Assembly (NCBI GenBank): GCA_029248825.1
Contig: JAQWIP010000102.1
Location: 12,847 to 76,846, forward strand
Reading direction: 5' to 3'
Source of the DNA: Alphaproteobacteria bacterium
GTDB taxonomy: Bacteria; Pseudomonadota; Alphaproteobacteria; RS24
Length of the DNA: 64,000 nt
How positions within the stretch are numbered: position 1 is the first letter of the stretch; every line of letters begins with the position of its first letter. The notes below the pieces were generated by a model. The model saw nothing but the letters and a program-made list of their open reading frames with translations. It was not told where the DNA came from and ran no database searches. A program made the position numbers and the translations under genes. This document shows, piece after piece, positions 3,494-16,907 of the stretch.

Positions 3494-5800
3494 TTAGCCA
3501 CACGCGTTTTTTGTGGTGTTTTGCCAGTCCTGCAAAATGGGAAACGCGAGAACCGCTTCGCGCCAATTGGCTTGCGCTTGCGTGCGCGAGAAGATTTTGT
3601 CTTGCATGGCACAGGCCTGCTGTTTGCGCTCTAGCTCGATGAAGATAGCCGCCAGCCCCAGCCGCGCGCCCATGCCGACGGGGTCATCGGCGGGCGTGCG
3701 CCGCGCCAAAGACGACAAAGCGCGCGCCGCTTCTAGGCCGCGTGCATTGGCTTGCAAAGTGGCGGCGCGCAAAAACCAAGCCGAGGGGCGGCGAGGAAAT
3801 TCGCTGGCCAATTTTTCGGCCAATGCCAAAGCCGCTTCGGGCTGCTCGCGGGTTAAATCGAAATCAATCAACGTCTCTAATAACACCGCGCGGGGGCGCC
3901 CTTGCAGGGTCTCCAAATCGCTGGTCAGCCAGACATACTGCGTGGCGAGGCGCGCTTTGGTTTCTGGTTTTTTGAGATAGGCTTTCCAATGCGCCAACAT
4001 ATGAGCGGCGGCGGCATCCTCTTGTGTCTCCAGCAGTGAGCTCAATCTTTCGCTATCTTTTTGCGCCACCAGATAGGATAAAGCGCGCGGCACCAAGGGG
4101 CGAATATCGCCGCCCGCCTCGACAAAACTCCCCCAGGCCGAGCCAAATTTAGGGCTGCTCAATTCTCCGCTCAAGGCAATTTCAATGCCCGCACGATGCA
4201 CCGCCAAAGGGTCTCCCGCAATACATCCGGGCGGGCATTCGACGCGCGTCCATAATTGATACAGCGTCATGGCTCCGCGCGCGCTGGCCGATATTTCGGC
4301 AGGGCTTTCGGTTTTGCGCCGCGCCTTTATCGCCTCGCCAAGCAAGCGCACGCGCATGCCCAAAAACAATCGATAGGCCGGCGTGTCGGGGCCAATGCCG
4401 GTGAGAATTTTATCGGCCTCCGCCCAGTTTTTGCGAGCGGTGGCATCGCGCGCCAAAACCACGCGCGCGCGCATCGCCAATAAAACATCCAAGGAGGGCG
4501 GCGGCGGGGTTGTCGCGGTGTCTGTGGAAATCGCTTGGGCGGGAATGGCGACCCCTTGGAAAGCGCGCGCCAGCGTCAGCATGGCCGCATCGGGTTTTTT
4601 GTCGACGGATAATTGCGCCAAAGCGATTAATTTATTTAATCGTAAGGCCGTTTCGCTGGTCTCTGGCAGAGCGTCTTGCGCCGAGCGAAGATGCGTGATC
4701 GCCAATTTATAGTCGCCCAAATTCAGCCGCGCCACGCCCATATGATAATCGACCCGCCGCTTGAGACCCGTTGGCATATGCGAATGGAAAGCTTTCATGC
4801 CCGGCCAAGCGGCCAAAATCTGTCCGTATTTTTGCGCCGCAAAAGCCTGCCGCATCCCCCGCAAAGAAAGGCCAGGTTCATAATCCATAGCATCGAGCAG
4901 CAATTGATCGCGCGCGACTAAATCCAACGCCGCTTTGAGGTTTTGCCCATCGCCTTGAAAGGCGGGGCGCAAGAGCGCGACAATCTCATAGGCCGGGCGC
5001 GTCTCGCGCATCGCTTGGCGCGCCAAATTCACCGCATCGCCGCTGGCAATCAAGCTTGAGCGAGGCGCCGCCTCAGAGGTTTGTGTGTCGAATAAAGCCA
5101 CGGGAGGGCGATAGTCTGGCGCGCTTATTCGCGCATAAAAATCGTCGACCGCACGGATAAAGCTCGGCGCGCCGCCCCGCTTTAGAGACTGTTGCAAACG
5201 CTGCAAAGTCGAGGTCGCCGTGGTTAAATCCCCTGCCTCAATTTGCGTGGTCGCCAAACCATACATGGCGCGTTGCACCAGCACGGGATGTTTAAATTCA
5301 AAGGTTAGGCCTTGCATCGCCTTGAGCGCGCCTTGCATGGCCTCGGCTTTTTCTTGCGCCGAAATATGGCGCACGGCGGCGGCCAATTGCCCCCAAGCCA
5401 CGCCATAAGCGCTCGCCACGCGCAGGCTTTCAATATCGCCCCATAAATCGGAGGACAGTAATTCTTCAAACGACAATTCATTATGGCGCACATTATCTTC
5501 GGCCCGTTTTCGCAACGCCGCCATAGTGTCCGAGACTTGGCTGGCTTGGCGCACGAAAGGCGCCAGCTCCAGAGGCCCAAAAGCGCTGTCATAACAAGCT
5601 TCCATGCCGATGGAATATTTATCCGTCGCCGCCAGATAGGGCGCGCTATTTTCGCTCAAAGCGGCCAGAATTTTTTCTGGCGTTTGGGTCAATAAGGCCG
5701 GCGGCGCCTCGCACGCGCGCACAGCGCTTGGCTCAAAACTCGCCAGAGCAACAAGCCAGACAGCCAACAAGGGTGCGCGCCAATATCGAATTAAAAACAT
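3494..5800 (-). CDS. large secreted alpha-helical (TPR-like?) protein of unknown function, last gene of the exbBD operon
   Basis: 768 aa. N-terminal signal peptide MFLIRYWRAPLLAVWLVALASFEPSAVRA. Long Ala/Leu-rich helical sequence with no catalytic motif recognised. Starts 8 nt after the VWA gene stop. Confidence 0.6.
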   Translation of the reverse strand: MFLIRYWRAPLLAVWLVALASFEPSAVRACEAPPALLTQTPEKILAALSENSAPYLAATDKYSIGMEACYDSAFGPLELAPFVRQASQVSDTMAALRKRAEDNVRHNELSFEELLSSDLWGDIESLRVASAYGVAWGQLAAAVRHISAQEKAEAMQGALKAMQGLTFEFKHPVLVQRAMYGLATTQIEAGDLTTATSTLQRLQQSLKRGGAPSFIRAVDDFYARISAPDYRPPVALFDTQTSEAAPRSSLIASGDAVNLARQAMRETRPAYEIVALLRPAFQGDGQNLKAALDLVARDQLLLDAMDYEPGLSLRGMRQAFAAQKYGQILAAWPGMKAFHSHMPTGLKRRVDYHMGVARLNLGDYKLAITHLRSAQDALPETSETALRLNKLIALAQLSVDKKPDAAMLTLARAFQGVAIPAQAISTDTATTPPPPSLDVLLAMRARVVLARDATARKNWAEADKILTGIGPDTPAYRLFLGMRVRLLGEAIKARRKTESPAEISASARGAMTLYQLWTRVECPPGCIAGDPLAVHRAGIEIALSGELSSPKFGSAWGSFVEAGGDIRPLVPRALSYLVAQKDSERLSSLLETQEDAAAAHMLAHWKAYLKKPETKARLATQYVWLTSDLETLQGRPRAVLLETLIDFDLTREQPEAALALAEKLASEFPRRPSAWFLRAATLQANARGLEAARALSSLARRTPADDPVGMGARLGLAAIFIELERKQQACAMQDKIFSRTQAQANWREAVLAFPILQDWQNTTKNACG

Positions 5801-5808
5801 CCCCGCCC

Positions 5809-6960
5809 CTATTCCAAATTGGCCAAGAAAGGCGCCAGCTCATCGTGAAACTTATCGTCGAAAATAAGCAGCGCCAAGGTTTTCATCAATTGGCGCTCAG
5901 CCGCCAAAGTCGCCGCTGTGCCGCCGCCCAAACGAGCCAATCTTTTAAATTGCGGCATCGTGCCTTGCTTTAATAAATCCGCGCGCCCCGACGTTTTGGC
6001 GCGCGCCCGACCCAACATTGCCCGATTGGCCTCGACGCGACTGTCGAGCAAAGAAAGCCGTCCGCCACGCGATTTCAACCGTTCGGCAATCTGTGCCGCT
6101 TCACCCGCCTCACGCGAATGCGGGGGCGCATCGCCAATGACAATCACCACGCGTTGCGCGCCCGGTCGCCACGCGATTTTGGTTTCCGCGTCGCGCAAGG
6201 CTTGGGTTACCGCTTCTGGATAATCGCCGCCGCCGACCGCATCAATGGCCGCAATGAAATCGCGCGATTTCACAATGTCAAAACTCGGCTGGGTGATGCG
6301 GGTGACAAACTCCAAATCATTATAATCGCGATAGGCGATAATGCCGAAGCGCGCCAAAGGCACGAGGTTGCGAATGTAAGTCGCCAATTGTTCCATCCGC
6401 TGATGAACTTTTTTATGCACCCAAACCATCGACCCCGTCGCATCAATGGCAAAAACCACATCAATTCCGGTCTTTTGCAAATGCTCAATATAATCGGCGA
6501 AAGTTTGCGGCACGCCCGAGATTAGCCCGCCGCCCGGAAGCGCGCGTTGGGTAACCGCCGCTGCGGGCAAAGGCATGGCAGGCGCGATGGCCGCCATATT
6601 GGCATTGTCCATCATCAAGTCATTGAAATCTGTATCGAGCGGCACTTCGAGAAGCTCGGATAAATCGAGATTTGCTTCCGCTTCGCGAAAATCTTCCGGC
6701 GGCGCCTGCGTGTCCAGCGTCAAATCCAGCTCTTCTGGCCCCGCTTCGCCCGCCGAAATGACCACGCTATCTTGCTCTGCCCCGCTGCCGCGCTCGCCGC
6801 CAAATAGCAACAGCAACACAAAGCCCACCGCGATGACATGCAAGACCACCGAGCCAACCAAAAGCCCAATCCAGACGCGGCGCGGCACCGCAATCAGGCG
6901 GGCGCGCAATTGGCCAAACCAGCCGCTTTTCTGGGTATTTGGGGCTGAGTTCGCGCTCAT
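5809..6960 (-). CDS. membrane-anchored von Willebrand factor A (VWA) domain protein with a TonB-like N-terminal anchor
   Basis: 383 aa. RR + TM helix RRVWIGLLVGSVVLHVIAVGFVLLLLF with Ser37/His41 spaced as in the TonB SxxxH anchor. Acidic/Pro linker. VWA-type motif DVVFAIDATGSM (residues ~166-180) and VVIVIGDAPPH. The ATG overlaps the exbD2 stop (ATGA). Confidence 0.7.
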   Translation of the reverse strand: MSANSAPNTQKSGWFGQLRARLIAVPRRVWIGLLVGSVVLHVIAVGFVLLLLFGGERGSGAEQDSVVISAGEAGPEELDLTLDTQAPPEDFREAEANLDLSELLEVPLDTDFNDLMMDNANMAAIAPAMPLPAAAVTQRALPGGGLISGVPQTFADYIEHLQKTGIDVVFAIDATGSMVWVHKKVHQRMEQLATYIRNLVPLARFGIIAYRDYNDLEFVTRITQPSFDIVKSRDFIAAIDAVGGGDYPEAVTQALRDAETKIAWRPGAQRVVIVIGDAPPHSREAGEAAQIAERLKSRGGRLSLLDSRVEANRAMLGRARAKTSGRADLLKQGTMPQFKRLARLGGGTAATLAAERQLMKTLALLIFDDKFHDELAPFLANLE

Positions 6961-7370
6961 TGTGCGGCTCCCTCATATTGCGTTTTCAGGCGAATTTCGC
7001 CCACCCCCGCTTTGGCCATGGCGGCGCGAAAAGCCAAAAGCGGTTTCGCATGGGCGCGCCGGTCGGCAATCAGCTCGACGGGCAAGCCTTGCTCGACAAT
7101 TCCCGCTGATTTCACATAATCCGCCAATTCGCCCAAAGTAACGCTTTCGCCTTCGGATAAATAAAACATGTCATCTTGTTTCAACCAGACGGCAAAGGCC
7201 GCGCCTGTGTATTCACTGTCTTGGGTGGAGGTCGCCACTTCGATTTGCTGCGGATGATTGGTCGTCGGGCGTCCCGCGATCAGCACAAATAAGATGAGCA
7301 GAAACACCACATTGATGAGCGGCAGCAAATCGATGGATTTTATTTCACGGCGTTGGCGATTGATTTTCAT
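6957..7370 (-). CDS. exbD: biopolymer transport protein ExbD/TolR (second copy)
   Basis: Start trimmed to MKINRQRREIKSIDLLPLINVVFLLILFVL, a typical ExbD N-terminus with single TM. The ORF-track extension 7371-7589 overlaps the upstream exbD. Confidence 0.85.
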   Translation of the reverse strand: MKINRQRREIKSIDLLPLINVVFLLILFVLIAGRPTTNHPQQIEVATSTQDSEYTGAAFAVWLKQDDMFYLSEGESVTLGELADYVKSAGIVEQGLPVELIADRRAHAKPLLAFRAAMAKAGVGEIRLKTQYEGAAQ

Positions 7371-7383
7371 AAGGCCCCAGCGC

Positions 7384-7821
7384 TCAAAAATCGGCCAGAT
7401 CAATATCAAATACATCGCGCTCCAAAGTGATGGAGGCTGCGCCCGCCTCCACCAAGAGGTCGAGCGTATCGGATATTTTTTGAACTTCTGCCGCGCCCGC
7501 CGGCATAAGCACGACAAGTTGGTCGTCGTGGCGCGCCACCAAAGCGGCGACATCTTGCGCCAGTTTTTCAGAGCTGACGGGCGCCCCATTCCAGTGCAAT
7601 TTGCCCGCTTCGCTAAGCGTCACAATCGCAGGCTGGCTGGCACTCTCGCTGCCGCCAGTGCCGCGCGGCGGCGCCAGACGGCTTTGGCCATAGCTGACAA
7701 AATCAGAGCCGAGCAGAAAAAACAGCAGCAATAGAAAAATCATATCGATGAGCGGGGTTAGCCCCATCATCGGATTTTTGCGCCGCGCGCGGGTGATTTG
7801 AAGGGCTTGCGACATCAGCAA
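7384..7821 (-). CDS. exbD: biopolymer transport protein ExbD/TolR (first copy)
   Basis: 145 aa with RRKNPMMGLTPLIDMIFLLLLFFLL anchor motif. Begins 8 nt after the exbB stop. Confidence 0.88.
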   Translation of the reverse strand: MLMSQALQITRARRKNPMMGLTPLIDMIFLLLLFFLLGSDFVSYGQSRLAPPRGTGGSESASQPAIVTLSEAGKLHWNGAPVSSEKLAQDVAALVARHDDQLVVLMPAGAAEVQKISDTLDLLVEAGAASITLERDVFDIDLADF

Positions 7822-7829
7822 GGAGCCCC

Positions 7830-8603
7830 TTAGGCTTTCGCCTGACTATCGCTGCGAACCAATATTTCGGTCAGCGCATCTTCCACCGTGTCGCGCACAT
7901 CATCCACCGCATTGTTGAACACAGCGGCGAGGATAGAAAACGGCAAGGCGACCCCAAGCCCGAAAGCGGTTGTCAAAAGAGCTTCCCAAATGCCCGAAGC
8001 CAGCAAAGCCGTATCCGCCCCACTGGAACCTTGGCCGACGCCTTGGAAAGCCACAATCATTCCCAACACGGTTCCCAACAAACCAAACAGCGGGGCGGAG
8101 GCCGCAATAAGTTCGAGAACCCAAATGTTTTTGCTTAAATGGCGAATTAAATATTGCGCCCGTCGGCCTAATTCTTCGCGCAAAATAGTGGCGCTCATCG
8201 TGCGGCCATGGGCTTGGGTAAGCGCATAGCCGATGAGCGGCGCGGCCGGATGGGCATAGGCATCGAGGCGTTTGGCCAGACCGTCAATTTCTCCCGCGCG
8301 ATAATCGGCCAAAGCCGCATCCAATTGTTGCGGGCGATAAATATCCATTTGGTAGAATTGGTAAATTTTAACCCCGGCCACCGGCAAGCCAACCGCCGAT
8401 AAAAGCGCAATGACCCAAGTGACCAAGCCGCCCTTGGAGAATAACAAGCCGAAAAAGCTCGGCGCCTCTTGCGCTACAGCCGTATTTTGCGCCGCGGCCA
8501 CATCTTGCGCCCAGCTTAGCTCGGGCAGCAAAGCCCCCGCCATCATAATTAAGCTCACGCCGGCCCATAGGGAAGCGGATTTCATAACGCCAAGTTTCAA
8601 CAT
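7830..8603 (-). CDS. exbB: MotA/TolQ/ExbB proton-channel protein with N-terminal signal-like extension
   Basis: 257 aa. C-terminal TM pair PLFGLLGTVLGMIVAFQ ... GIWEALLTTAFGLGVALP typical of ExbB/TolQ. N-terminus looks like a signal peptide ending SWAQD. Confidence 0.88.
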   Translation of the reverse strand: MLKLGVMKSASLWAGVSLIMMAGALLPELSWAQDVAAAQNTAVAQEAPSFFGLLFSKGGLVTWVIALLSAVGLPVAGVKIYQFYQMDIYRPQQLDAALADYRAGEIDGLAKRLDAYAHPAAPLIGYALTQAHGRTMSATILREELGRRAQYLIRHLSKNIWVLELIAASAPLFGLLGTVLGMIVAFQGVGQGSSGADTALLASGIWEALLTTAFGLGVALPFSILAAVFNNAVDDVRDTVEDALTEILVRSDSQAKA

Positions 8604-8635: not shown

Positions 8636-8675
8636 ATGAAAAAACGCCGCCAGTAAAAATTGGCGGCGTTTTCAT
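8636..8675 (-). terminator. rho-independent terminator downstream of the acyl-CoA dehydrogenase gene
   Basis: Perfect 10-bp stem AACGCCGCCA (8643-8652) / TGGCGGCGTT (8661-8670) with an 8-nt loop. On the minus-strand transcript the stem is followed by a U-run. Confidence 0.8.
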
Positions 8676-8694: not shown

Positions 8695-9849
8695 CTAGAG
8701 CGCGCGCGCAACCAGCATCCGCATAATCTCGTTCGAGCCACCATAAATCCGCTGCACGCGCGCATCGGTATACATGCGGCTGATCGGGTATTCATCCATA
8801 TAGCCATAGCCGCCGAAGAATTGCAGGCAATCATCGATGACTTCGTTTTCGCGTTCGGTACACCAAAATTTCGCCGCCGCCGCACTATTGGCATCCAGCT
8901 CGCCTTCCAGCAATTGCGCCGTCAATTGGTCTACCATGGCCCGCGCCGCCATCCATGTGGCTTTGCATTCGGCCAATTTATATTGCGTGTTTTGGTAATC
9001 AAAAATCGAATTGCCAAAAGTTTTGCGCTCGCGCGTGTAATCTAGCGTCAGCTCAATCGCGCGCTCCATAGAGGCCACCGCCTGATTGGCAATCACCAAA
9101 CGCTCGGCTGGCAATTGCTGCATCAATTGGAAAAAGCCTTGGCCTTCCTCGCCGCCCAAAATATTATCGGCTGGCACTTTCACCTCATCGAAAAACAACT
9201 CCGATGTATCGGCCGCATGTTGACCCATTTTTTCGAGGTTGCGACCGCGCGCAAACCCTTGTGTGTCGTCATTTGTTTCGACAATCACCAGCGAAATGCC
9301 TTTGGCGCCTTGCGACGTGTCGGTCTTGGCAACCACCAAAACGATGTCGGCGGTTTGGCCGTTGGTGATGAAAGTTTTCGAGCCATTCACCACATATTGA
9401 TTGCCGTCTTTGACGGCGGTGGTTTTGACCGATTGCAAATCAGAACCGGTTCCAGGCTCGGTCATGGCGATGCCACAAATCAATTCGCCCGAAGCCATTT
9501 TGGGCAGATATTTTTTCTTCTGCTCTTCCGTGCCATAGGACAAGAAATAATGCGAGCAGATGAGCGAGTGAACCGACTGGCCCCAGCCCGCCACACCGAG
9601 GCGCGTTTGCACTTCGGTGAGAATGGCTTCATGGCGATAGTCGCCGCCGCCGCCGCCATATTCTTCTGGAATCGACGTGCATAAAAGCCCAGCCGCGCCC
9701 GCTTTCGTCCACGCATCGCGGTCAACAATGCCTTGTTTCGTCCATTTGTCGGCCAAAGGCACGAATTCATTGGTCATGAATTTACGCGCCGCATCTTCAA
9801 AGATGGTGAGGTCTTCTGTCATCCAAGGGGATGTGTAATTTCCAAGCAT
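8695..9849 (-). CDS. acyl-CoA dehydrogenase
   Basis: 384 aa. MTEPGTGSDLQS, C-terminal RIYGGSNEIMRMLVAR and the overall ACAD pattern. Confidence 0.9.
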   Translation of the reverse strand: MLGNYTSPWMTEDLTIFEDAARKFMTNEFVPLADKWTKQGIVDRDAWTKAGAAGLLCTSIPEEYGGGGGDYRHEAILTEVQTRLGVAGWGQSVHSLICSHYFLSYGTEEQKKKYLPKMASGELICGIAMTEPGTGSDLQSVKTTAVKDGNQYVVNGSKTFITNGQTADIVLVVAKTDTSQGAKGISLVIVETNDDTQGFARGRNLEKMGQHAADTSELFFDEVKVPADNILGGEEGQGFFQLMQQLPAERLVIANQAVASMERAIELTLDYTRERKTFGNSIFDYQNTQYKLAECKATWMAARAMVDQLTAQLLEGELDANSAAAAKFWCTERENEVIDDCLQFFGGYGYMDEYPISRMYTDARVQRIYGGSNEIMRMLVARAL

Positions 9850-9942
9850 GTTTTGCTCCCATTTATATCTGGCAAGATGTTAGCCATAGAGAGGCGGCAC
9901 GCGCAAGCTTGTTCCCCTGCGACATTTATGGCGCAAGACAGC

Positions 9943-11103
9943 TTAAAGCTGCATGGCTTTATGATAGCCGCCAAGCCTCACGCGACCAATCATTTCATAA
10001 GTCGCGGCATTGGCAATCATATGTTGGGTCATGGTTTCGCTATCGCGCAACCGCCGCTGGATGGCACTGGTTTTATAAACCGATGTGCCGCCCGCCAAAT
10101 CATGCATTTGGCGCACCACTTGCACACAAACGCGCACCGCATGGGTCGATATCAGCCGCAAATCGGCGCGTTGTTCCGGTGTTATCGCGTGGCCGCCTTC
10201 GACAGCATCCCAAGTGTCGCGCAACGTCTGCCAATAAAACGCATCGGCGCTGCGCCATAAAGCTTCGGCCTCGGCCAAACTGGCTTGCACGCTACTGCGC
10301 TCGGCCAAGGTGCGCGAATTGCCCATCGGGGTTTTGGCCATGGCCAATTCAATGAAATCATCCAACGCCGCGCGCGCATTGCCCAAAGCCACGGCGCCGA
10401 CACCCGTCGCCAAAAATCCGAAATAGGGCATTTTATATAGCGGGTCTTGCGTCCACGGCGTATCCGTCGCAATCGAATAACTATGCGCCACTGGCACGCG
10501 AATTTGATCCACTTCGACATCGCCCGAGCTGGTGCCGCAAAGCCCCATCGTATGCCAAGTGTCGTGAAAAATAACTTGCTCGCGCGGGATCATCAAAAGC
10601 CGCACGCTTGGTTTTTCGTCCTCGGGCGCTTGCGCCAAACAGCCAAGCCCAAGGTAATCGGCATTGGCCGACCCTGACGCCCAAGCCCATCGCCCCGAAA
10701 CGATATAGTCATCGCCATCTTGCAGGGCGCGTCCATTGGGCGCGAAAATGCCACAGGTAATGCGGCTCGGACTGGCGAACATTTCTTGGCTAGTGTCGGG
10801 CTTAATGAAGGCCGACCCGAGAGCCGCCGTGGCGCCAATCATACTGACCCACGCGCTGGCCGCATCATGCATGGCGAGAACTTGCAGCCGCGCATTGCCT
10901 TCGAGTGGCGTCAATTGAGCGCCCCCAATATCTTTTGGCACAAACATAGAGAACATGCCCGCATCGGCCAATTGGCGCGCCAACTCGGGTGCCAAAGCGC
11001 GCGCGGCCTCGGTGGCCTCGGCGCTGGTTTTCGCGGCGGCGCAAACCGTGGCAAATTTTTTGTCTTTTTTAAACTCTACTTGTTTATCGGCTCGCGCGCG
11101 CAT
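9943..11103 (-). CDS. acyl-CoA dehydrogenase-fold flavoprotein (type-2 ACAD / monooxygenase-like)
   Basis: Start trimmed to MRARADK (ATG 11101-11103). ELARQLADAGMFSMFVPKDIGGAQL, WASGS and a C-terminal four-helix region are typical of the ACAD type-2 family. Confidence 0.65.
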   Translation of the reverse strand: MRARADKQVEFKKDKKFATVCAAAKTSAEATEAARALAPELARQLADAGMFSMFVPKDIGGAQLTPLEGNARLQVLAMHDAASAWVSMIGATAALGSAFIKPDTSQEMFASPSRITCGIFAPNGRALQDGDDYIVSGRWAWASGSANADYLGLGCLAQAPEDEKPSVRLLMIPREQVIFHDTWHTMGLCGTSSGDVEVDQIRVPVAHSYSIATDTPWTQDPLYKMPYFGFLATGVGAVALGNARAALDDFIELAMAKTPMGNSRTLAERSSVQASLAEAEALWRSADAFYWQTLRDTWDAVEGGHAITPEQRADLRLISTHAVRVCVQVVRQMHDLAGGTSVYKTSAIQRRLRDSETMTQHMIANAATYEMIGRVRLGGYHKAMQL

Positions 11104-11172
11104 GGTCGCCTCTCCTTGTCTTCGATGTCGGGTTCGATAAGTTTGTCGAAAAACCAAAACCAACGCAACCCG

Positions 11173-11976
11173 TTAGGCAATATCAATATAGACGGGCGCA
11201 TGGTCGGAGGGGCGCTCCCACCCTCTGGCCTCGCGCAAGACACCATAGTTTTCCACCGCGTCGGATAAATCTGGCGTCACCCAAATATGGTCGAGACGGC
11301 GACCTTTATCGGCCGCGTCCCAATCTTTGGCGCGATAGCTCCACCAGCTATAAAGTTTTTCTGCCGCCGGCACGAAGCGGCGCGAGACGTCTTCCCAATC
11401 CAACGTGTTTTGCAGCTTCGCCAAAGCCTCAATTTCAATCGGCGTATGGCTGACGACTTTTTGCAATTTCTTCGACGACCACACATCATGCTCCCCGGGC
11501 GCAATGTTTAAATCGCCCAAGAGAACGCTGGCGGGCGCCTCTTTTTGTTTCGATTGGCGTTTGAAATTCTTGGTCATCTCGGCCAGAAAATCTTGCTTAT
11601 GGCCAAATTTCTCATTTATCTCGCGGTCGGGTTCATCGCCGCCCGCTGGCACATAAAAATTATGAATGGCAATCGCGCGCCCCTTATGTTCGACGGTTGT
11701 GTGCATATGGCGACCATCTTCTTTGCCGCAATAATCGATATAGCTCTGCTCGACGAAAGGCAGACGCGAAAGCGTGGCGACACCGTGATAGCCCTTAATG
11801 CCGTTTTTCGCGATATGAGAAAACCCAGCTTTGGCGAAAGCTTTTTCGGGAAAACTATCGTTCGGGCATTTGGTCTCTTGCAGACAAATAACATCGGGTT
11901 TTAATTTTTTTATCAAATCCAGCACGAGAGGTTCGCGCAGGCGAACCGAGTTGATATTCCACGAGACAATCCGCAT
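11173..11976 (-). CDS. xthA: exodeoxyribonuclease III
   Basis: MRIVSWNINSVR, CLQETK, GDLNIAP, SDHAPV. Confidence 0.93.
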   Translation of the reverse strand: MRIVSWNINSVRLREPLVLDLIKKLKPDVICLQETKCPNDSFPEKAFAKAGFSHIAKNGIKGYHGVATLSRLPFVEQSYIDYCGKEDGRHMHTTVEHKGRAIAIHNFYVPAGGDEPDREINEKFGHKQDFLAEMTKNFKRQSKQKEAPASVLLGDLNIAPGEHDVWSSKKLQKVVSHTPIEIEALAKLQNTLDWEDVSRRFVPAAEKLYSWWSYRAKDWDAADKGRRLDHIWVTPDLSDAVENYGVLREARGWERPSDHAPVYIDIA

Positions 11977-11994
11977 GGCGTAAATCCTATCCGT

Positions 11995-12642
11995 TTAAAA
12001 TAAATTCAATGTGCGACCCGTTAGCGCCAGCGGCCAACGGCCTAGCTCAAACAGCCTGTAACGTAGCATAAGCGGGTGGTTCAGGGCTTCTTCGCCAGCT
12101 TCCATATCGTCCAAATTTCCGGCCTGCACGGCCGCCGCGACCAAAGCCAACGCCCCGCCATGGGCGGCTTGTTGGGCCGCGCCGACCGCCAAATCGCGGA
12201 TGGTGTCGGGCAATTCATCGGCCATCATCAGGGCTTCATCAATCAGCTCGGGCAAAACGTCGGCCAATTGCGCCGATAAATGCGCCAACATGACTCCCAA
12301 ACCCTCTTCGCTGACCCCCGCCAAAGCCTCTTCCATGAGGCCTGCGCGCAATTGCTCCTCGACCTCCCAAGCCTCGGTGTTGAGGTCGAGACTGGCCGAA
12401 GCATCCAGCGCATCATCCCAGCTCATCACGCCAATCGCATCGGCATCGGGAAAGCCCAACAGGTCGAGATAGCTGCGCGCCAGATAAGCGGTTTTTTCGT
12501 CTATCGGGTCGCCCAGCTCGGAAAACCAATTGGCGCGAACGGCGCGTTCGGCAAATTCGCGCACCGCCGAAAGCACCGGAATTTCACTTTCCAACGCCAT
12601 AAGGTTTTCGGCATCGGGCTGCCATTCATCTTGCTCCCTCAT
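11995..12642 (-). CDS. hypothetical, strongly acidic cytoplasmic protein
   Basis: 215 aa, very rich in D/E/A/L, with no TM segment or signal peptide and no motif I recognise. Sits in line between lolA and xthA, separated by 7 nt and 18 nt. Confidence 0.55.
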   Translation of the reverse strand: MREQDEWQPDAENLMALESEIPVLSAVREFAERAVRANWFSELGDPIDEKTAYLARSYLDLLGFPDADAIGVMSWDDALDASASLDLNTEAWEVEEQLRAGLMEEALAGVSEEGLGVMLAHLSAQLADVLPELIDEALMMADELPDTIRDLAVGAAQQAAHGGALALVAAAVQAGNLDDMEAGEEALNHPLMLRYRLFELGRWPLALTGRTLNLF

Positions 12643-12649
12643 AGTTTAT

Positions 12650-13270
12650 TTATTCCTCGTCTGGCTCATCATAGTCGATGATGAAAACCGATGCGTCTAA
12701 CCGATCGGTCGGGATAATTTGGCTCAGGCGGACTTGTGTCACCAGATTTTGCACATCGACCAAGCGCCACGCGTAAAGCGTTAACTCGGCGCGGGTGAAA
12801 TAAAGCGTCACCTCGCCCGGCAACTCGCCTTTGGGGTCGTGCAAGGTCAGGGCGATAACGCTGTCTGAATCGTCGCGCGCGCGCACCATGTCTTGGGTAA
12901 TGCCATCGCGCACCGCTTGGCGCAAAACCGAAAGCGGCGTCAGGCTGACCGGAAACCAATTGGGTTCTGCGCCTAGTTTTTCTTGCACGGCAACAAATTT
13001 GCCTTTGACAGTGACAATCGAGCCGCCGTCATTTGCCCCTTCATAGGCAAACCGCAGACGCGCAGGCCATTGCATATGATAGGTGCCACGCGCCATATTG
13101 CCATTGGGCAAGCTCTGCTCAAAGCGACCGCTTTGCGGCGGAATATTTTTCAACGCCACATTGATTTCGCTCAGGGACACATTGGGGTTTTGCGCGCGAG
13201 CGGGCGCGCTGGAAGCCCAAAGTCCAACCAGCGCCGCCACGGCCAAAAGAGAGCGAGAGAAAAAAACCAT
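12650..13270 (-). CDS. lolA: outer-membrane lipoprotein carrier protein LolA
   Basis: 206 aa. Signal peptide ...SSAPARAQ, SGRFEQ motif, and the conserved ftsK-lolA arrangement. The ATG shares 1 nt with the ftsK stop. Confidence 0.75.
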   Translation of the reverse strand: MVFFSRSLLAVAALVGLWASSAPARAQNPNVSLSEINVALKNIPPQSGRFEQSLPNGNMARGTYHMQWPARLRFAYEGANDGGSIVTVKGKFVAVQEKLGAEPNWFPVSLTPLSVLRQAVRDGITQDMVRARDDSDSVIALTLHDPKGELPGEVTLYFTRAELTLYAWRLVDVQNLVTQVRLSQIIPTDRLDASVFIIDYDEPDEE

Positions 13271-15663
13271 CAGTGTTTGTCCACCAAAATTTCGCGTTTG
13301 CCAGATCCGTTTGGCGGGCTGATAACGCCTTGTTCTTCCATTTGCTCAATCAGACCCGCCGCCCGATTATAGCCGATTTGCAGGCGCCGCTGCACATAAG
13401 AGGTCGAGGCGCGGCCATCGCGCGTGACAATGGCCACCGCTTGGTCGTAGAGGCTTTCCGCGACATCGACTTCCATGTCGCCGGCCTCTTCGGCTTCTTT
13501 GGTAACCTCTTCCAAATATAACGGCTCACCTTGTTTCTTTAAGTAGCTGACGACTTTTTCGACTTCATCATCGGAAACAAAAGGCCCATGCACACGCTGC
13601 ACCCGACCGCCGCCGCCCATGAACAACATATCGCCTTGCCCCAAAAGCTGCTCGCCGCCTTGCTCGCCCAAAACCGTGCGACTGTCGATTTTCGAGGTCA
13701 CTTGAAACGAAATGCGGCTCGGGAAATTGGCTTTAATCGTGCCAGTAATCACATCCACCGATGGGCGTTGCGTGGCGGTGATGAGATGCACCCCGGCGGC
13801 GCGCGCCATTTGCGCCAGACGCTGCACGGCGCCCTCAATGTCTTTGCCCGCCACCATCATCAAGTCAGCCATCTCATCGATGACCACGACGATGAAAGGG
13901 AGAACCTCGGTTTCAATAATCTCATCTTCAAACATCGCCTCGCCGCTTTCGGGGTCGAAGCCCGTCTGCACACGGCGCGATAAAGTCTCGCCCGATTTTT
14001 GCGCCTCGCTCATTTTATCGTTAAAGCCCTCGATATTGCGCACGCCGATTTTGGCCATCTTGCGATAGCGATTTTCCATTTCCTGCACGACCCATTTCAG
14101 CGCGACCACCGCTTTTTTCGGCTCGGTGACCACCGGCGCCAACAAATGCGGAATGCCATCATAGACCGACAGCTCAAGCATTTTCGGGTCGACCAAAATC
14201 AGGCGGCATTCGGCTGGCGACAGGCGGTAGAGGATCGATAAAATCATCGTGTTAATGCCAACCGATTTACCCGAGCCCGTCGTCCCCGCCACCAAAAGGT
14301 GAGGCATTTTCGTGAGGTCGGCCATCACTGGCGCGCCGCCAATGTCTTTGCCGAGCGCCATGGTTAATTTGCTTTTGCCATTTTCAAAATCGCTGCTCGA
14401 CAATAATTCGCGCAAAGACACCAGCTCGCGCGTCTGATTGGGCAACTCAATGCCAATGACATTGGCGCCCGGCACCGGCGCCACGCGCGCCGAAACGGCG
14501 CTCATTGAGCGCGCGATATCATCCGACAAGCCAACCACGCGCGACGAGCGAACGCCAGCAGCGGGTTCTAATTCATAGAGCGTCACCACAGGGCCGGGGC
14601 GCACTTTGCCGATGGTGCCGCGCACGCCGAAATCTTGCAGCACGGTTTCCAGCATTCGCGCATTGGCCTCCAGCGCATCCTTGCTCAAGGTGGTGGCTTG
14701 GCGCGGTGGTTTATGTTCGGTCAGAAGGCGCAAGGGCGGCAATTGATATTGGCTGGTTTTTTCAAACGCCAAACGCGGCTGCTGCTCGCGCGTCGCGCGG
14801 CGGCCCTTTTTGGGCGCCGGTTTTTTGTCGGTCACTTCGACAGCTGAGCCCTCGTCTGGCACTTCCGCCGCTTGCGGCGCAGGCGTTGCGGGCGCATCGC
14901 TGGGCTGTGGCTCGGGTTGACCCGCCATTTTGCGCGCGCGAAGGGCCGGCAGAAGATGTCTCACGCGGCTGGAAAGGCTTGCGCCGACAGCCGTCAATTT
15001 GGCGAACAACTGGTTCGGTTGGGGTTGGGGGCGCACCACGAGGCGCGCGAAACGCAGCCCCGTTTTGGCGCCCAAGAGAGCGCCCGTCGCCACCGCGCGG
15101 GTGAGGCCACTGGCATAAAGCGCCAGCAAAATGGCCGCCAATCCGAAGCCGCTCGCCAAAACCCATTCGACCGTTCGCCCCGGATAATAATGAATGACAG
15201 CCAAAAGCATCTCCACCCAAACGCCCATTAGCTGACCGAAAGCCCCGCCATGAAACGGGTCATAGGGCGAGGCATCGCGCCCGATGAGCGCAAAACTGAG
15301 CGCCATAAATAAAGGCGCCGCACAGGCAGCCAGAAACCGCCAATTGGGATGGGTAATCTCAAGGCCGCGCAATTGGCGCGCCGCGCGCGCCCCCACGGGC
15401 AACAAAATCAGCCACGCCGCATGGCCAAGACTTTGCATCACCAAATCGGCGACAAATGCGCCCGAAGTGCCAAGCCAATTATTTGGGCTTTGGGTATTGC
15501 TGGTATTTAAACTGGCGTCTTGCGCATCAAACCCCAATAGCGCTACGCCCACATAGACCACGGCCAGCAGCGTTAAGCTGGCCGAAACCCGCAGCCATAA
15601 AACAGCCAAAAGGCGGCGCAAAAACGGCATAAGGCCTCGGCGGAATTCTTGCAGTCGGCTCAT
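13270..15663 (-). CDS. ftsK: DNA translocase FtsK
   Basis: Start trimmed to MSRLQEFRRGL (ATG 15661-15663, ATGA overlap with the aminotransferase stop). N-terminal TM segments, Pro/Gln-rich linker, Walker A GTTGSGKSVGIN, Walker B VVVIDEMADL, and a gamma winged-helix YVQRRLQIGYNRAAGLIEQME. Confidence 0.95.
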   Translation of the reverse strand: MSRLQEFRRGLMPFLRRLLAVLWLRVSASLTLLAVVYVGVALLGFDAQDASLNTSNTQSPNNWLGTSGAFVADLVMQSLGHAAWLILLPVGARAARQLRGLEITHPNWRFLAACAAPLFMALSFALIGRDASPYDPFHGGAFGQLMGVWVEMLLAVIHYYPGRTVEWVLASGFGLAAILLALYASGLTRAVATGALLGAKTGLRFARLVVRPQPQPNQLFAKLTAVGASLSSRVRHLLPALRARKMAGQPEPQPSDAPATPAPQAAEVPDEGSAVEVTDKKPAPKKGRRATREQQPRLAFEKTSQYQLPPLRLLTEHKPPRQATTLSKDALEANARMLETVLQDFGVRGTIGKVRPGPVVTLYELEPAAGVRSSRVVGLSDDIARSMSAVSARVAPVPGANVIGIELPNQTRELVSLRELLSSSDFENGKSKLTMALGKDIGGAPVMADLTKMPHLLVAGTTGSGKSVGINTMILSILYRLSPAECRLILVDPKMLELSVYDGIPHLLAPVVTEPKKAVVALKWVVQEMENRYRKMAKIGVRNIEGFNDKMSEAQKSGETLSRRVQTGFDPESGEAMFEDEIIETEVLPFIVVVIDEMADLMMVAGKDIEGAVQRLAQMARAAGVHLITATQRPSVDVITGTIKANFPSRISFQVTSKIDSRTVLGEQGGEQLLGQGDMLFMGGGGRVQRVHGPFVSDDEVEKVVSYLKKQGEPLYLEEVTKEAEEAGDMEVDVAESLYDQAVAIVTRDGRASTSYVQRRLQIGYNRAAGLIEQMEEQGVISPPNGSGKREILVDKH

Positions 15664-16907
15664 CTTGCCACCTCCCCCTGGGGGTGCGCATCGAGACACG
15701 CTTTTAGCTTCAGCAAGGCCGTGCGCGTTTCCTCTAAGGGAGCCACCAAAGCCACGCGGATATAAGGGGCGCTGATATTCGCGCCGCCAATGTTCGCGCT
15801 CGTGGCGCTCGTTGCGCTCGGTGCGCTCGGCTGGGTGAGATACGCGCCTGGCAAAACCCGTACCCCCGCTTCGCGCCAGAGGGTTTTCGTTGTCGCCTCG
15901 CCATCGCCGACATGGAGCCATAAAAAGAAACCGCCTTGGGGTCGGTAAAAACCATAGGCCGTGCCGAAAATCTCTTGCGCTATATCTAATTTGGCACGAT
16001 AGGCCGTGCGATTGTCTTCCACATGGGCATCGTCGCCCCACGCCAGAGCGGCCGCGTTTTGCACCGGCAAAGGCGATTGCGGGCCCGCCACCATGCGTAA
16101 TTTTTGCAAACGCGCCATCGCGCTTTTGCCGCCCGCCACAAACCCCGAGCGCAGACCAGGCAGATTGGAACGTTTGGACAGCGAGTGAAACACCATCACG
16201 GGCGCATCGCTATCTTGCGCCTCGGCCATGACTTCCAGCATGGAGGGCGGCGGACTGGCGGCCAGCGGCGTGTCGTAAATTTCGCTATAGCATTCATCGA
16301 CCAATAATAAGAAGTCGTGGTTTTTGGCCAGCTCATAGGCGCGCGTGAGATAGGCTTTATCGGCAATGGCGCCTTGCGGATTGGCGGGCGAGCATAAATA
16401 AAGTGCGCGCAAGCGAGATAAAATCTCGGGGGTTAGGCTTTCTAAATCGGGCAAAAATCCGCTTTCGGCGGGCGCGTCGAGATAGAGCGGGGTCGCGCCT
16501 GCCGCCAAAGCGGCGCTGGCGTAAACTTGATAAAACGGGTTGGGCATGGCCATGACGCCCTGCGGTTTGGGCGGGGCGACTTGAGCCGCCAAAAACAGCC
16601 CTTCGCGCGTGCCATTGAGCGGCAGAATTTGCGCGCCCTCGGACAAAAGCCCGGCCTCAAGAGAAAAGCGGCGCCAGAGCCAGCCCTCGACAGCGGCGCG
16701 CCAGTCTGGCGTGCCACCAATCGGCGGGTAGCGACCATAGTCGGCCCTATTGCTTTGCAGAGCGTCCAAGACAAAACTTGGCGGCGCGTGTTGCGGCTCG
16801 CCAATCGCCATCGAACAAGGCACATCGCCTGGCTCGCACCCGTCCAACAGCGTCCGAAGGCGCGCGAAGGGGGAGGCGGGAAGGGCGTCGAAGGGCCCAT
16901 GGGACAT
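15660..16907 (-). CDS. class I/II PLP-dependent aminotransferase (DapC/AlaC-like)
   Basis: 415 aa. MAIGEPQH, NPANPQG-like CSPANPQG, and PLP-lysine motif SLSKRSNLPGLRSG. Confidence 0.85.
   Translation of the reverse strand: MSHGPFDALPASPFARLRTLLDGCEPGDVPCSMAIGEPQHAPPSFVLDALQSNRADYGRYPPIGGTPDWRAAVEGWLWRRFSLEAGLLSEGAQILPLNGTREGLFLAAQVAPPKPQGVMAMPNPFYQVYASAALAAGATPLYLDAPAESGFLPDLESLTPEILSRLRALYLCSPANPQGAIADKAYLTRAYELAKNHDFLLLVDECYSEIYDTPLAASPPPSMLEVMAEAQDSDAPVMVFHSLSKRSNLPGLRSGFVAGGKSAMARLQKLRMVAGPQSPLPVQNAAALAWGDDAHVEDNRTAYRAKLDIAQEIFGTAYGFYRPQGGFFLWLHVGDGEATTKTLWREAGVRVLPGAYLTQPSAPSATSATSANIGGANISAPYIRVALVAPLEETRTALLKLKACLDAHPQGEVAR
15796..15831. repeat. in-frame 9-bp tandem repeat x4 inside the aminotransferase gene
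   Basis: GCGCTCGTG / GCGCTCGTT / GCGCTCGGT / GCGCTCGGC at 15796-15831. On the coding strand it encodes SAPSATSATSAN. Confidence 0.9.

Follow-up and report, generated by a model that had tools for sequence, protein, structure and literature searches.

A VWA protein with a TonB/TolA-type Ser/His anchor is the probable force transducer of an ExbB/ExbD-type motor in marine Alphaproteobacteria

The window analysed here is a 64,000-nucleotide stretch of contig JAQWIP010000102.1 (positions 12,847 to 76,846 of the forward strand) from an Alphaproteobacteria bacterium. On its minus strand it carries a five-gene operon, the fourth gene of which (5809-6960) encodes a protein of 383 amino acids with a TonB/TolA-like membrane anchor and a VWA domain. 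Sequence and gene order make it probable that this VWA protein is the force-transducer subunit of a third kind of motor of the ExbB/ExbD type driven by the proton-motive force (PMF), a sibling of the Ton and Tol systems. Such proteins have been described as a class named 'vWA force transducers', with Tichowtungia aerotolerans as the reference species (msaf138; Mol Biol Evol 2025;42, PMC12204202). Judged by its sequence, the window protein is a member of this published class, new from the marine PS1 clade/Parvibaculales, the Tichowtungia reference having been compared by description.

A first-pass annotation of the window had read 5809-6960 as a chimeric protein, in which a TonB-type SxxxH anchor is fused to a periplasmic VWA domain. 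The anchor and the VWA domain are both borne out by the residues, the coordinates, the Pfam VWA match and the fold predicted by AlphaFold2. The gene is an intact open reading frame (ORF) whose ATG overlaps the upstream stop codon as ATGA. Residues 27-55, read from the sequence, are RRVWIGLLVGSVVLHVIAVGFVLLLLFGG (coding 6796-6882), with Ser37 encoded by tcg at 6850-6852 and His41 by cat at 6838-6840, and both DVVFAIDATGSM and VVIVIGDAPPH are found in the protein. An AlphaFold2 monomer model built on 21 homologues contains a single membrane helix at residues 27-53, with a predicted local distance difference test score (pLDDT) of 80-89, followed by disorder at residues 55-151 (pLDDT <50) and an alpha/beta VWA fold at residues 154-366. 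The parts of the protein are as follows.

5809-6960, minus strand: VWA protein, predicted bitopic inner membrane protein with TonB/TolA-like anchor, disordered linker and VWA head (Pfam, homologues, AlphaFold2, Foldseek).
6802-6876, minus strand: transmembrane helix, residues 29-53, carrying Ser37 and His41 (AlphaFold2 and invariance in the alignments).
6748-6768, minus strand: candidate 'motor box' SVVISAG, residues 65-71, after the Gly-rich spacer GGERGSG (conservation in the clade; concept from msaf138).
6505-6801, minus strand: periplasmic linker ('domain II'), residues 54-152, acidic, Ala/Gly/Pro-rich and predicted to be disordered (pLDDT, composition).
5812-6504, minus strand: C-terminal VWA domain, residues 153-383 (Pfam VWA, VWA_4 and VWA_2; Foldseek).

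The first 28 residues of the VWA protein have a net charge of +5, while the 99 residues of the linker contain 19 Asp and Glu, 3 Arg, no Lys and 9 Pro, giving a net charge of -16. Because of this distribution the positive-inside rule predicts a cytoplasmic N-terminus and a periplasmic VWA domain (N-in/C-out), in agreement with the location first proposed for the domain, and the composition likewise confirms that an acidic, proline-containing linker stands in place of the TonB rod. The helix is devoid of acidic residues. Parvibaculales conserve SVVISAG, the candidate motor box, after the Gly-rich spacer, with S69 kept in at least 90%, and a block of alternating hydrophobic residues aligns at the same place in distant members. 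Separately, the linker in Parvibaculales has the invariant short motifs DLSELLEVPLD and AIAPAMPxP...VTQRA.PGGGLISGVPQ (residues 99-110 and 124-152; window positions 6630-6665 and 6505-6590, minus strand). Since these motifs are invariant, the linker is more than a spacer, and binding sites within it are possible.

Conservation was followed in several homologue sets, namely A1 (close homologues of 57-99% identity), A2 (44 homologues of 22-35% identity to the query), A3 (a closer set of 11 sequences) and a second distant set of 32 members from which the alphaproteobacterial clade was left out. All close homologues belong to marine Alphaproteobacteria that bear the label PS1 clade, Parvibaculales or Rhodobiaceae; among them His41 is invariant and Ser37 is kept in at least 90%. 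In the A2 alignment only ten columns are invariant, two of which are Ser37 and His41 while the remainder lie in the VWA domain. Both residues are likewise invariant in the 32-member set and in sets A3 and A5, so the Ser/His pair singled out by the first-pass annotation has withstood the comparison with its homologues. When 1.8 billion representative proteins were searched exhaustively with a profile, 12,364 relatives were obtained at E<=1e-3. The designation 'chimeric' is therefore apt for the architecture of anchor plus VWA domain but not in the sense of a one-off fusion, since the family is old and widespread.

A hydrophobic segment N-terminal of the VWA domain is present in 119 of the best 149 representatives (50% identity clusters), and in 100 of these 119 it includes S-x3-H. 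As a control, hydrophobic segments from other ORFs of the same loci carry the motif in 9 of 788 cases (1.1%). By these counts the occurrence of S-x3-H in the anchors of the family is far beyond chance. In the exceptions Thr or Ala replaces Ser while His is kept, or the architecture is secreted or contains multiple VWA domains. When a profile of the anchor alone was compared with the PDB, three of the top four matches were to TolA in TolQRA cryo-EM entries. These TolA helices are the best specific matches and align with Ser and His in register, as the proposed kinship with TonB-family anchors would have it, but the E-value of ~1.3 is not significant. The N-terminal 67 residues matched no TonB- or TolA-related model in Pfam at E<=10.

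In five longer relatives (P0185, P0207, P0223, P0226 and P0243; 572-606 amino acids) an FHA domain at the cytoplasmic N-terminus (Pfam E 1e-5 to 5e-14) precedes the Ser-x3-His helix and the VWA head. Its presence hints at control of the transducer by Ser/Thr phosphorylation, dependent on phospho-threonine, in some phyla.

The VWA gene is flanked by the components expected of a motor. In the operon the genes for an ExbB-like protein, ExbD-like 1, ExbD-like 2, the VWA protein and a TPR protein follow each other head to tail, with intergenic gaps of 8-14 nt, 13 nt, -4 nt (the ATGA overlap) and 8 nt, and the VWA gene occupies the place of tonB in exbB-exbD-exbD-tonB clusters. The adjacent ExbB and ExbD proteins presupposed by the first-pass annotation are thus indeed present, encoded immediately upstream of the VWA gene by one ExbB-like and two ExbD-like genes. 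The remaining features of the operon are listed below.

7830-8603, minus strand: ExbB/TolQ-like proton-channel subunit, first gene, 257 amino acids, with a signal-peptide-like N-terminus (Pfam MotA_ExbB, E 3.6e-25).
7384-7821, minus strand: ExbD/TolR-like subunit 1, 143 amino acids from the ATG at 7815, with the helix LTPLIDMIF (ORF and alignment with E. coli ExbD).
6957-7370, minus strand: ExbD/TolR-like subunit 2, 137 amino acids, with the helix LLPLINVVF (Pfam ExbD, E 2.4e-11).
3494-5800, minus strand: TPR-rich protein, last gene, 768 amino acids, with a Sec-type signal peptide (weak TPR_6 and YbgF matches; homologues).
8641-8672, no strand assigned: perfect 14-bp GC-rich hairpin flanked by A and T runs, between an acyl-CoA dehydrogenase gene and the ExbB-like gene (sequence).

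The hairpin looks like a bidirectional intrinsic terminator and would mark the upstream edge of the operon. Against the NCBIfam models the ExbB-like protein scores 63.9 bits for exbB and 59.7 bits for tolQ, both far under the equivalog cut-offs, and for this reason it is a divergent paralogue. No second motor gene and no other Ser-x3-His or TonB-like anchor is present in the 64-kb window.

The two ExbD-like subunits differ at the position of the essential proton-carrying Asp. In ExbD-like 1 this position is occupied by Asp24 (codon 7744-7746), PLIDMIF aligning with PFIDVML of the E. coli ExbD helix that holds Asp25. In ExbD-like 2 it is replaced by Asn20 (aat, 7311-7313), PLINVVF aligning with PLLDVLL of TolR. 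Among the loci of our genome scan (described below), Asp is found in ExbD-like 1 in all 58 readable cases and the pairing of Asp with Asn in ExbD-like 2 in 55 of 57, across Alpha- and Gammaproteobacteria. In one distant locus (L082) the order is inverted, with Asn preceding Asp, and three loci (L076, L078 and L080) have Asp in both subunits. The pairing implies a motor that would work with a single protonatable Asp. Neither the Asn nor the asymmetry of the subunits is mentioned in the text of msaf138.

The TPR protein seems to be closely tied to the VWA protein. TPR_14, TPR_19 and TPR_6 matches are found among the homologues of this 768-residue protein, its signal peptide is of the Sec type with no clear lipobox, and in 18 homologues Cys730 is invariant and Cys767 is kept in at least 90%, which suggests a disulfide formed in the periplasm. 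Because of the signal peptide, the conserved Cys pair and the near-constant co-occurrence with the VWA gene, the TPR protein is a likely partner of the VWA protein. Residues 669-739 give a weak NCBIfam match to the Tol-Pal protein YbgF/CpoB. CpoB/YbgF is the TPR protein of the tol-pal operon, and we treat the parallel with the TPR protein of the module as a lead only.

The head has the characteristics of a ligand-binding VWA domain with a metal site. The Pfam VWA match covers residues 167-300 with an E-value of 1.2e-6, exceeding the gathering score. Foldseek against the PDB finds BatB of Bacteroides (3ibs), the VWA domain of the anthrax-toxin receptor (ANTXR) and the integrin beta I-like domain as best matches (E ~1e-9 to 1e-7). 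A motif of the metal ion-dependent adhesion site (MIDAS) type, D173-A-T175-G-S177 (DxTxS), is coded at 6430-6444, and GGGD246xPE249 and GD277APPH are conserved as well. All sequences of the distant set A2 share D173, T175 and E249, and at least 90% of them have S177 and D246. Invariance of D277 is limited to the closer sets A1 and A3.

A genome scan with an 11-sequence set, covering one genome per bacterial species, gave 568 loci with a relative, and all locus counts given here refer to the best 78 (31 from Parvibaculales and 47 others), among which Kiritimatiellota are not represented. Gene order was called with profiles built from the five proteins of the window. The order ExbB-ExbD-ExbD-VWA-TPR is found in more than 55 loci of Parvibaculales and Gammaproteobacteria, comprising all Parvibaculales loci long enough to show it and most of the Gammaproteobacteria (Haliea, Porticoccaceae, Pseudomonadales and Candidatus Azophilus). 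The TPR gene adjoins the VWA gene in 77 of the 78 loci and an ExbB-like gene does so in 64. Precomputed Pfam labels, which are independent of our own profiles, reveal the permuted order VWA-MotA_ExbB-ExbD-ExbD-TPR (~826 amino acids) in distant metagenomic members, and one distant metagenomic locus consists of MotA_ExbB, a single ExbD, VWA, an unknown gene and TPR.

Several loci have a VWA-TPR pair and keep S-x3-H in the anchor where no motor gene is adjacent (L056:302-5847, L061:323-7295, L039, L055, L032, L036, L037 and L053). The order in the motorless Porticoccaceae is DUF1302, VWA, TPR, DUF1329, and in Myxococcota an MMPL gene lies upstream. Because the anchor keeps S-x3-H, these pairs presumably use a motor encoded elsewhere in the genome. 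Many tonB genes are unlinked to exbBD. As a separate observation, the module is fragmented in a metagenome-assembled genome of Rhodobiaceae (L015:5440-10434), where ExbB has 189, ExbD 64 and VWA 295 amino acids and TPR is in seven pieces. The operon may be decaying there, or the long-read assembly may contain errors from sequencing or polishing.

Outside Parvibaculales the module lies in a recurrent envelope cluster. The typical, Pfam-confirmed order in Gammaproteobacteria is DUF1329, BNR/YCF48-like, DUF1302, module, DUF1329, and clusters of this kind are found at L034, L040-L050, L054, L057, L058, L062, L066, L069 and L074 (for example L057:890-11333). Counted within 7 kb of the VWA gene, 34 of the 47 loci outside Parvibaculales have DUF1329, 33 have DUF1302, 25 have BNR and 25 have MMPL/RND. 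None of DUF1302, DUF1329, BNR and MMPL is found in the 31 Parvibaculales loci or in the 64-kb window. In two distant metagenomic loci a TP_0789-like gene (LolA-like fold) comes right after the TPR gene, and in one of the two this gene also gives a weak DUF1329 match. The four-gene cluster of DUF1302, DUF1329, BNR and RND has been reported to have shared fitness effects in transposon screens of Shewanella and Pseudomonas, with mutant phenotypes on Tween 20 and fatty esters and no assigned mechanism, and export of a cell-envelope component or action on fatty esters has been proposed as its role (bioRxiv 10.1101/072470, 10.1101/2020.07.04.188060). The text of msaf138 does not mention the DUF1302/DUF1329 neighbourhood families.

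Taken as a motor, the module could work as follows. The ExbB-like pentamer would enclose a heterodimer of ExbD-like 1, with the proton-carrying Asp, and ExbD-like 2, with the Asn. The N-terminal helix of the VWA protein would dock on the outside of the pentamer through its Ser37/His41 face, as TonB and TolA do, and the Gly-rich spacer and the strand-like SVVISAG (65-71) would be placed for a grip by the periplasmic domains of the ExbD-like subunits. The acidic disordered linker of ~100 residues may span the periplasm, so that the VWA head could bind its target through the metal-ion site (D173/T175/S177 with D246/E249/D277) and the action of the motor would pull on the target or remodel it. The best candidates for the target are the co-encoded TPR protein and, in other lineages, the flanking DUF1302 outer-membrane and DUF1329 LolA-like proteins. 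From sequence and synteny we infer the contact with ExbB/ExbD, the transduction of energy and the other steps from docking onward, including the identity of the ligand.

The proteins of the DUF1302/DUF1329 cluster are candidates for the outer-membrane target of the VWA head. We suggest tentatively, as a doubtful extension of the proposed role, that the ExbB-ExbD(Asp)-ExbD(Asn)-VWA-TPR module might be the missing energy source of the DUF1302/DUF1329/BNR/MMPL system. The head would grip the DUF1302 or DUF1329 protein by its metal site and the motor with one Asp would pull, whereas in the streamlined PS1 clade the partner would be encoded elsewhere or would be the TPR protein alone. If so, Ton (import) and Tol (outer-membrane tethering) would be joined by a third trans-envelope function powered by the PMF, which would probably consist in moving lipids or other hydrophobic material across the envelope.

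Several points weigh against a force-transducer role for the VWA protein. The TonB SHLS register reads S37/H41/V48/L52, so two of its four positions match. The TolA match of the anchor profile is a lead and no proof at its E-value, and a helix of 20 residues cannot discriminate homology from convergence. The AlphaFold2 monomer contains no strand at the candidate motor box 65-71, and the window encodes no outer-membrane partner close to the module. The Asn in one ExbD-like subunit could mean that the motor works unlike ExbBD. A minority of loci have the VWA-TPR pair with no ExbB or ExbD gene within 7 kb, indicating that the link to the motor is not obligatory, and no deletion phenotype is reported for the vWA force transducers (PMC12204202).

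An alternative is a passive scaffold or adhesin of the BatA/BatB type, tethered in the membrane and acting with the TPR protein, in which the helix is a mere anchor, no force passes, and the motor genes serve another purpose or regulate assembly. The closest structural match of the head is BatB, Bat operons also combine membrane-anchored VWA and TPR proteins, and some VWA-TPR pairs stand without an adjacent motor. We consider a passive role unlikely, because nothing would oblige a mere tether to retain the polar Ser and His without exception among homologues of 22-35% identity, and the motorless pairs retain S-x3-H as would be expected with a motor encoded elsewhere. The MoxR ATPase and DUF58, which are hallmarks of Bat, are moreover absent from the module, and the protein has one helix instead of two. 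A little less probable still is a protein that docks through Ser/His as proposed and senses a ligand with its head, but whose task is to regulate the motor or help to assemble it, for example as a plug, brake or stator-like tether, with the TPR protein or something else as the output. The docking features and the synteny would be the same for a regulator as for a transducer, the cytoplasmic FHA domain of the longer relatives is a signalling module, and the TPR partner is near-obligatory. However, an anchor followed by an extended linker of ~100 residues and a globular ligand-binding head is the layout of TonB and TolA, and the TPR protein has only a signal peptide and no element for docking on a motor.

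MotA/ExbB-type motors also serve phage defence, as in Zorya, and the module could be imagined as a conflict or defence system on a 5:2 motor with VWA and TPR proteins as sensor and effector. PADLOC indeed returns very weak ZorA matches to the ExbB-like protein (E 0.0015-0.0076). These reflect membership of the MotA/ExbB family alone. The other four proteins match nothing in PADLOC, and the module has no nuclease or other effector domain. Its surroundings are conserved housekeeping genes in each of the 31 Parvibaculales loci and envelope clusters elsewhere, not variable islands. A defence role is hence very improbable and was rejected after the PADLOC scan. The least credible explanation is that S-x3-H arose by chance in an otherwise ordinary signal anchor. 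For one sequence alone this would be conceivable, the motif being found in about 1% of hydrophobic segments, but the family-wide invariance and its presence in 100 of 119 anchors against 1.1% of the controls already refute chance. Force transduction by the VWA protein consequently stays the reading that we favour.

Ton and Tol are the two classic routes by which energy of the inner membrane reaches the outer membrane of Gram-negative bacteria. A third class of transducers with a metal-dependent VWA head would mean that the same solution for docking on a motor powers another process of the envelope. The locus shows this class to be a fixed syntenic feature of the abundant marine PS1 clade/Parvibaculales, and it offers experimental handles in the invariant Ser/His pair and the metal-site motif, in the second ExbD-like subunit devoid of the essential Asp, and in the link to the DUF1302 cluster in culturable Gammaproteobacteria. 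The value of the finding lies in corroborating a published class and extending it, and would rise if the DUF1302/DUF1329 link or the one-Asp motor proves functional.

Upstream of the module, 8695-16041 (minus strand) contains two acyl-CoA dehydrogenase-family genes, exodeoxyribonuclease III, an unassigned ORF of 215 residues, ftsK and a LolA-like gene, none of which could be linked functionally to the module.

Compared with the known systems, the VWA protein resembles TonB in being bitopic and predicted N-in, in the Ser-x3-His helix preceded by Arg-Arg, in its place in an exbB-exbD(-exbD) operon and in the long non-globular periplasmic spacer. It differs from TonB in lacking the TonB C-terminal domain (no TonB_C match in Pfam or NCBIfam) and the Glu-Pro/Lys-Pro rod, the linker being acidic with 9% Pro and no Lys. 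Its VWA head is metal-dependent, so recognition would not occur by beta-strand addition to a TonB box. With TolA it shares a Ser-x3-His helix followed by a Gly-rich stretch and a short strand-like segment, and the co-encoded TPR protein recalls CpoB/YbgF. In contrast to TolA, it has no domain III, its linker is not the long Ala/Lys/Glu helix of proteobacterial TolA, and neither tolB nor pal is found in the operon or its flanks. An identity as TonB or TolA is ruled out by the absence of TonB_C, TolA domain III, the Pro-rich rod, tolB and pal.

BatA and BatB are likewise membrane-tethered periplasmic VWA proteins associated with TPR proteins, and BatB is the top structural match. Unlike a Bat locus, that of the window has no gene for a MoxR AAA+ ATPase or DUF58, and its VWA protein has one helix where BatA/BatB have two, together with an invariant Ser/His pair and a dedicated ExbB/ExbD-like motor; the missing MoxR/DUF58 genes and the single helix rule out a Bat operon. 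A second vWA family described in msaf138, TPH-vWA, also couples a vWA head to a TolQ-like motor. Its members have tolQ as the only partner, replace TolR/ExbD, carry the pore Asp and are devoid of SHLS. The helix of the window protein, on the other hand, has Ser/His and lacks Asp, and the gene lies beside two ExbD-like genes, which rules out that the protein is a TPH-vWA.

The closest similarity is with the vWA force transducers themselves. These are built of an SHLS helix, a disordered region in which a 'motor box' strand is predicted, a domain II of ~100 residues and a C-terminal vWA fold, they neighbour a tolQ-like, two different tolR-like and a TPR gene, and they are reported in Proteobacteria, Planctomycetes, Verrucomicrobia, Bacteroidetes and Rhodothermaeota; in AlphaFold3 models the conserved His of the helix sits on the motor edge (PMC12204202). 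The window protein shares the single SHLS-type Ser/His helix, a Pro-containing disordered domain II (99 residues, 9 Pro, net -16), the C-terminal vWA fold and the synteny with tolQ-like, two different tolR-like and TPR genes. The TPR gene is downstream of the vWA gene here, whereas it is upstream in the PVC group according to msaf138. The basic idea was already published in 2025, and the Asn of the second ExbD-like subunit, the DUF1302 context and the FHA-bearing relatives are additions which are not found in msaf138.

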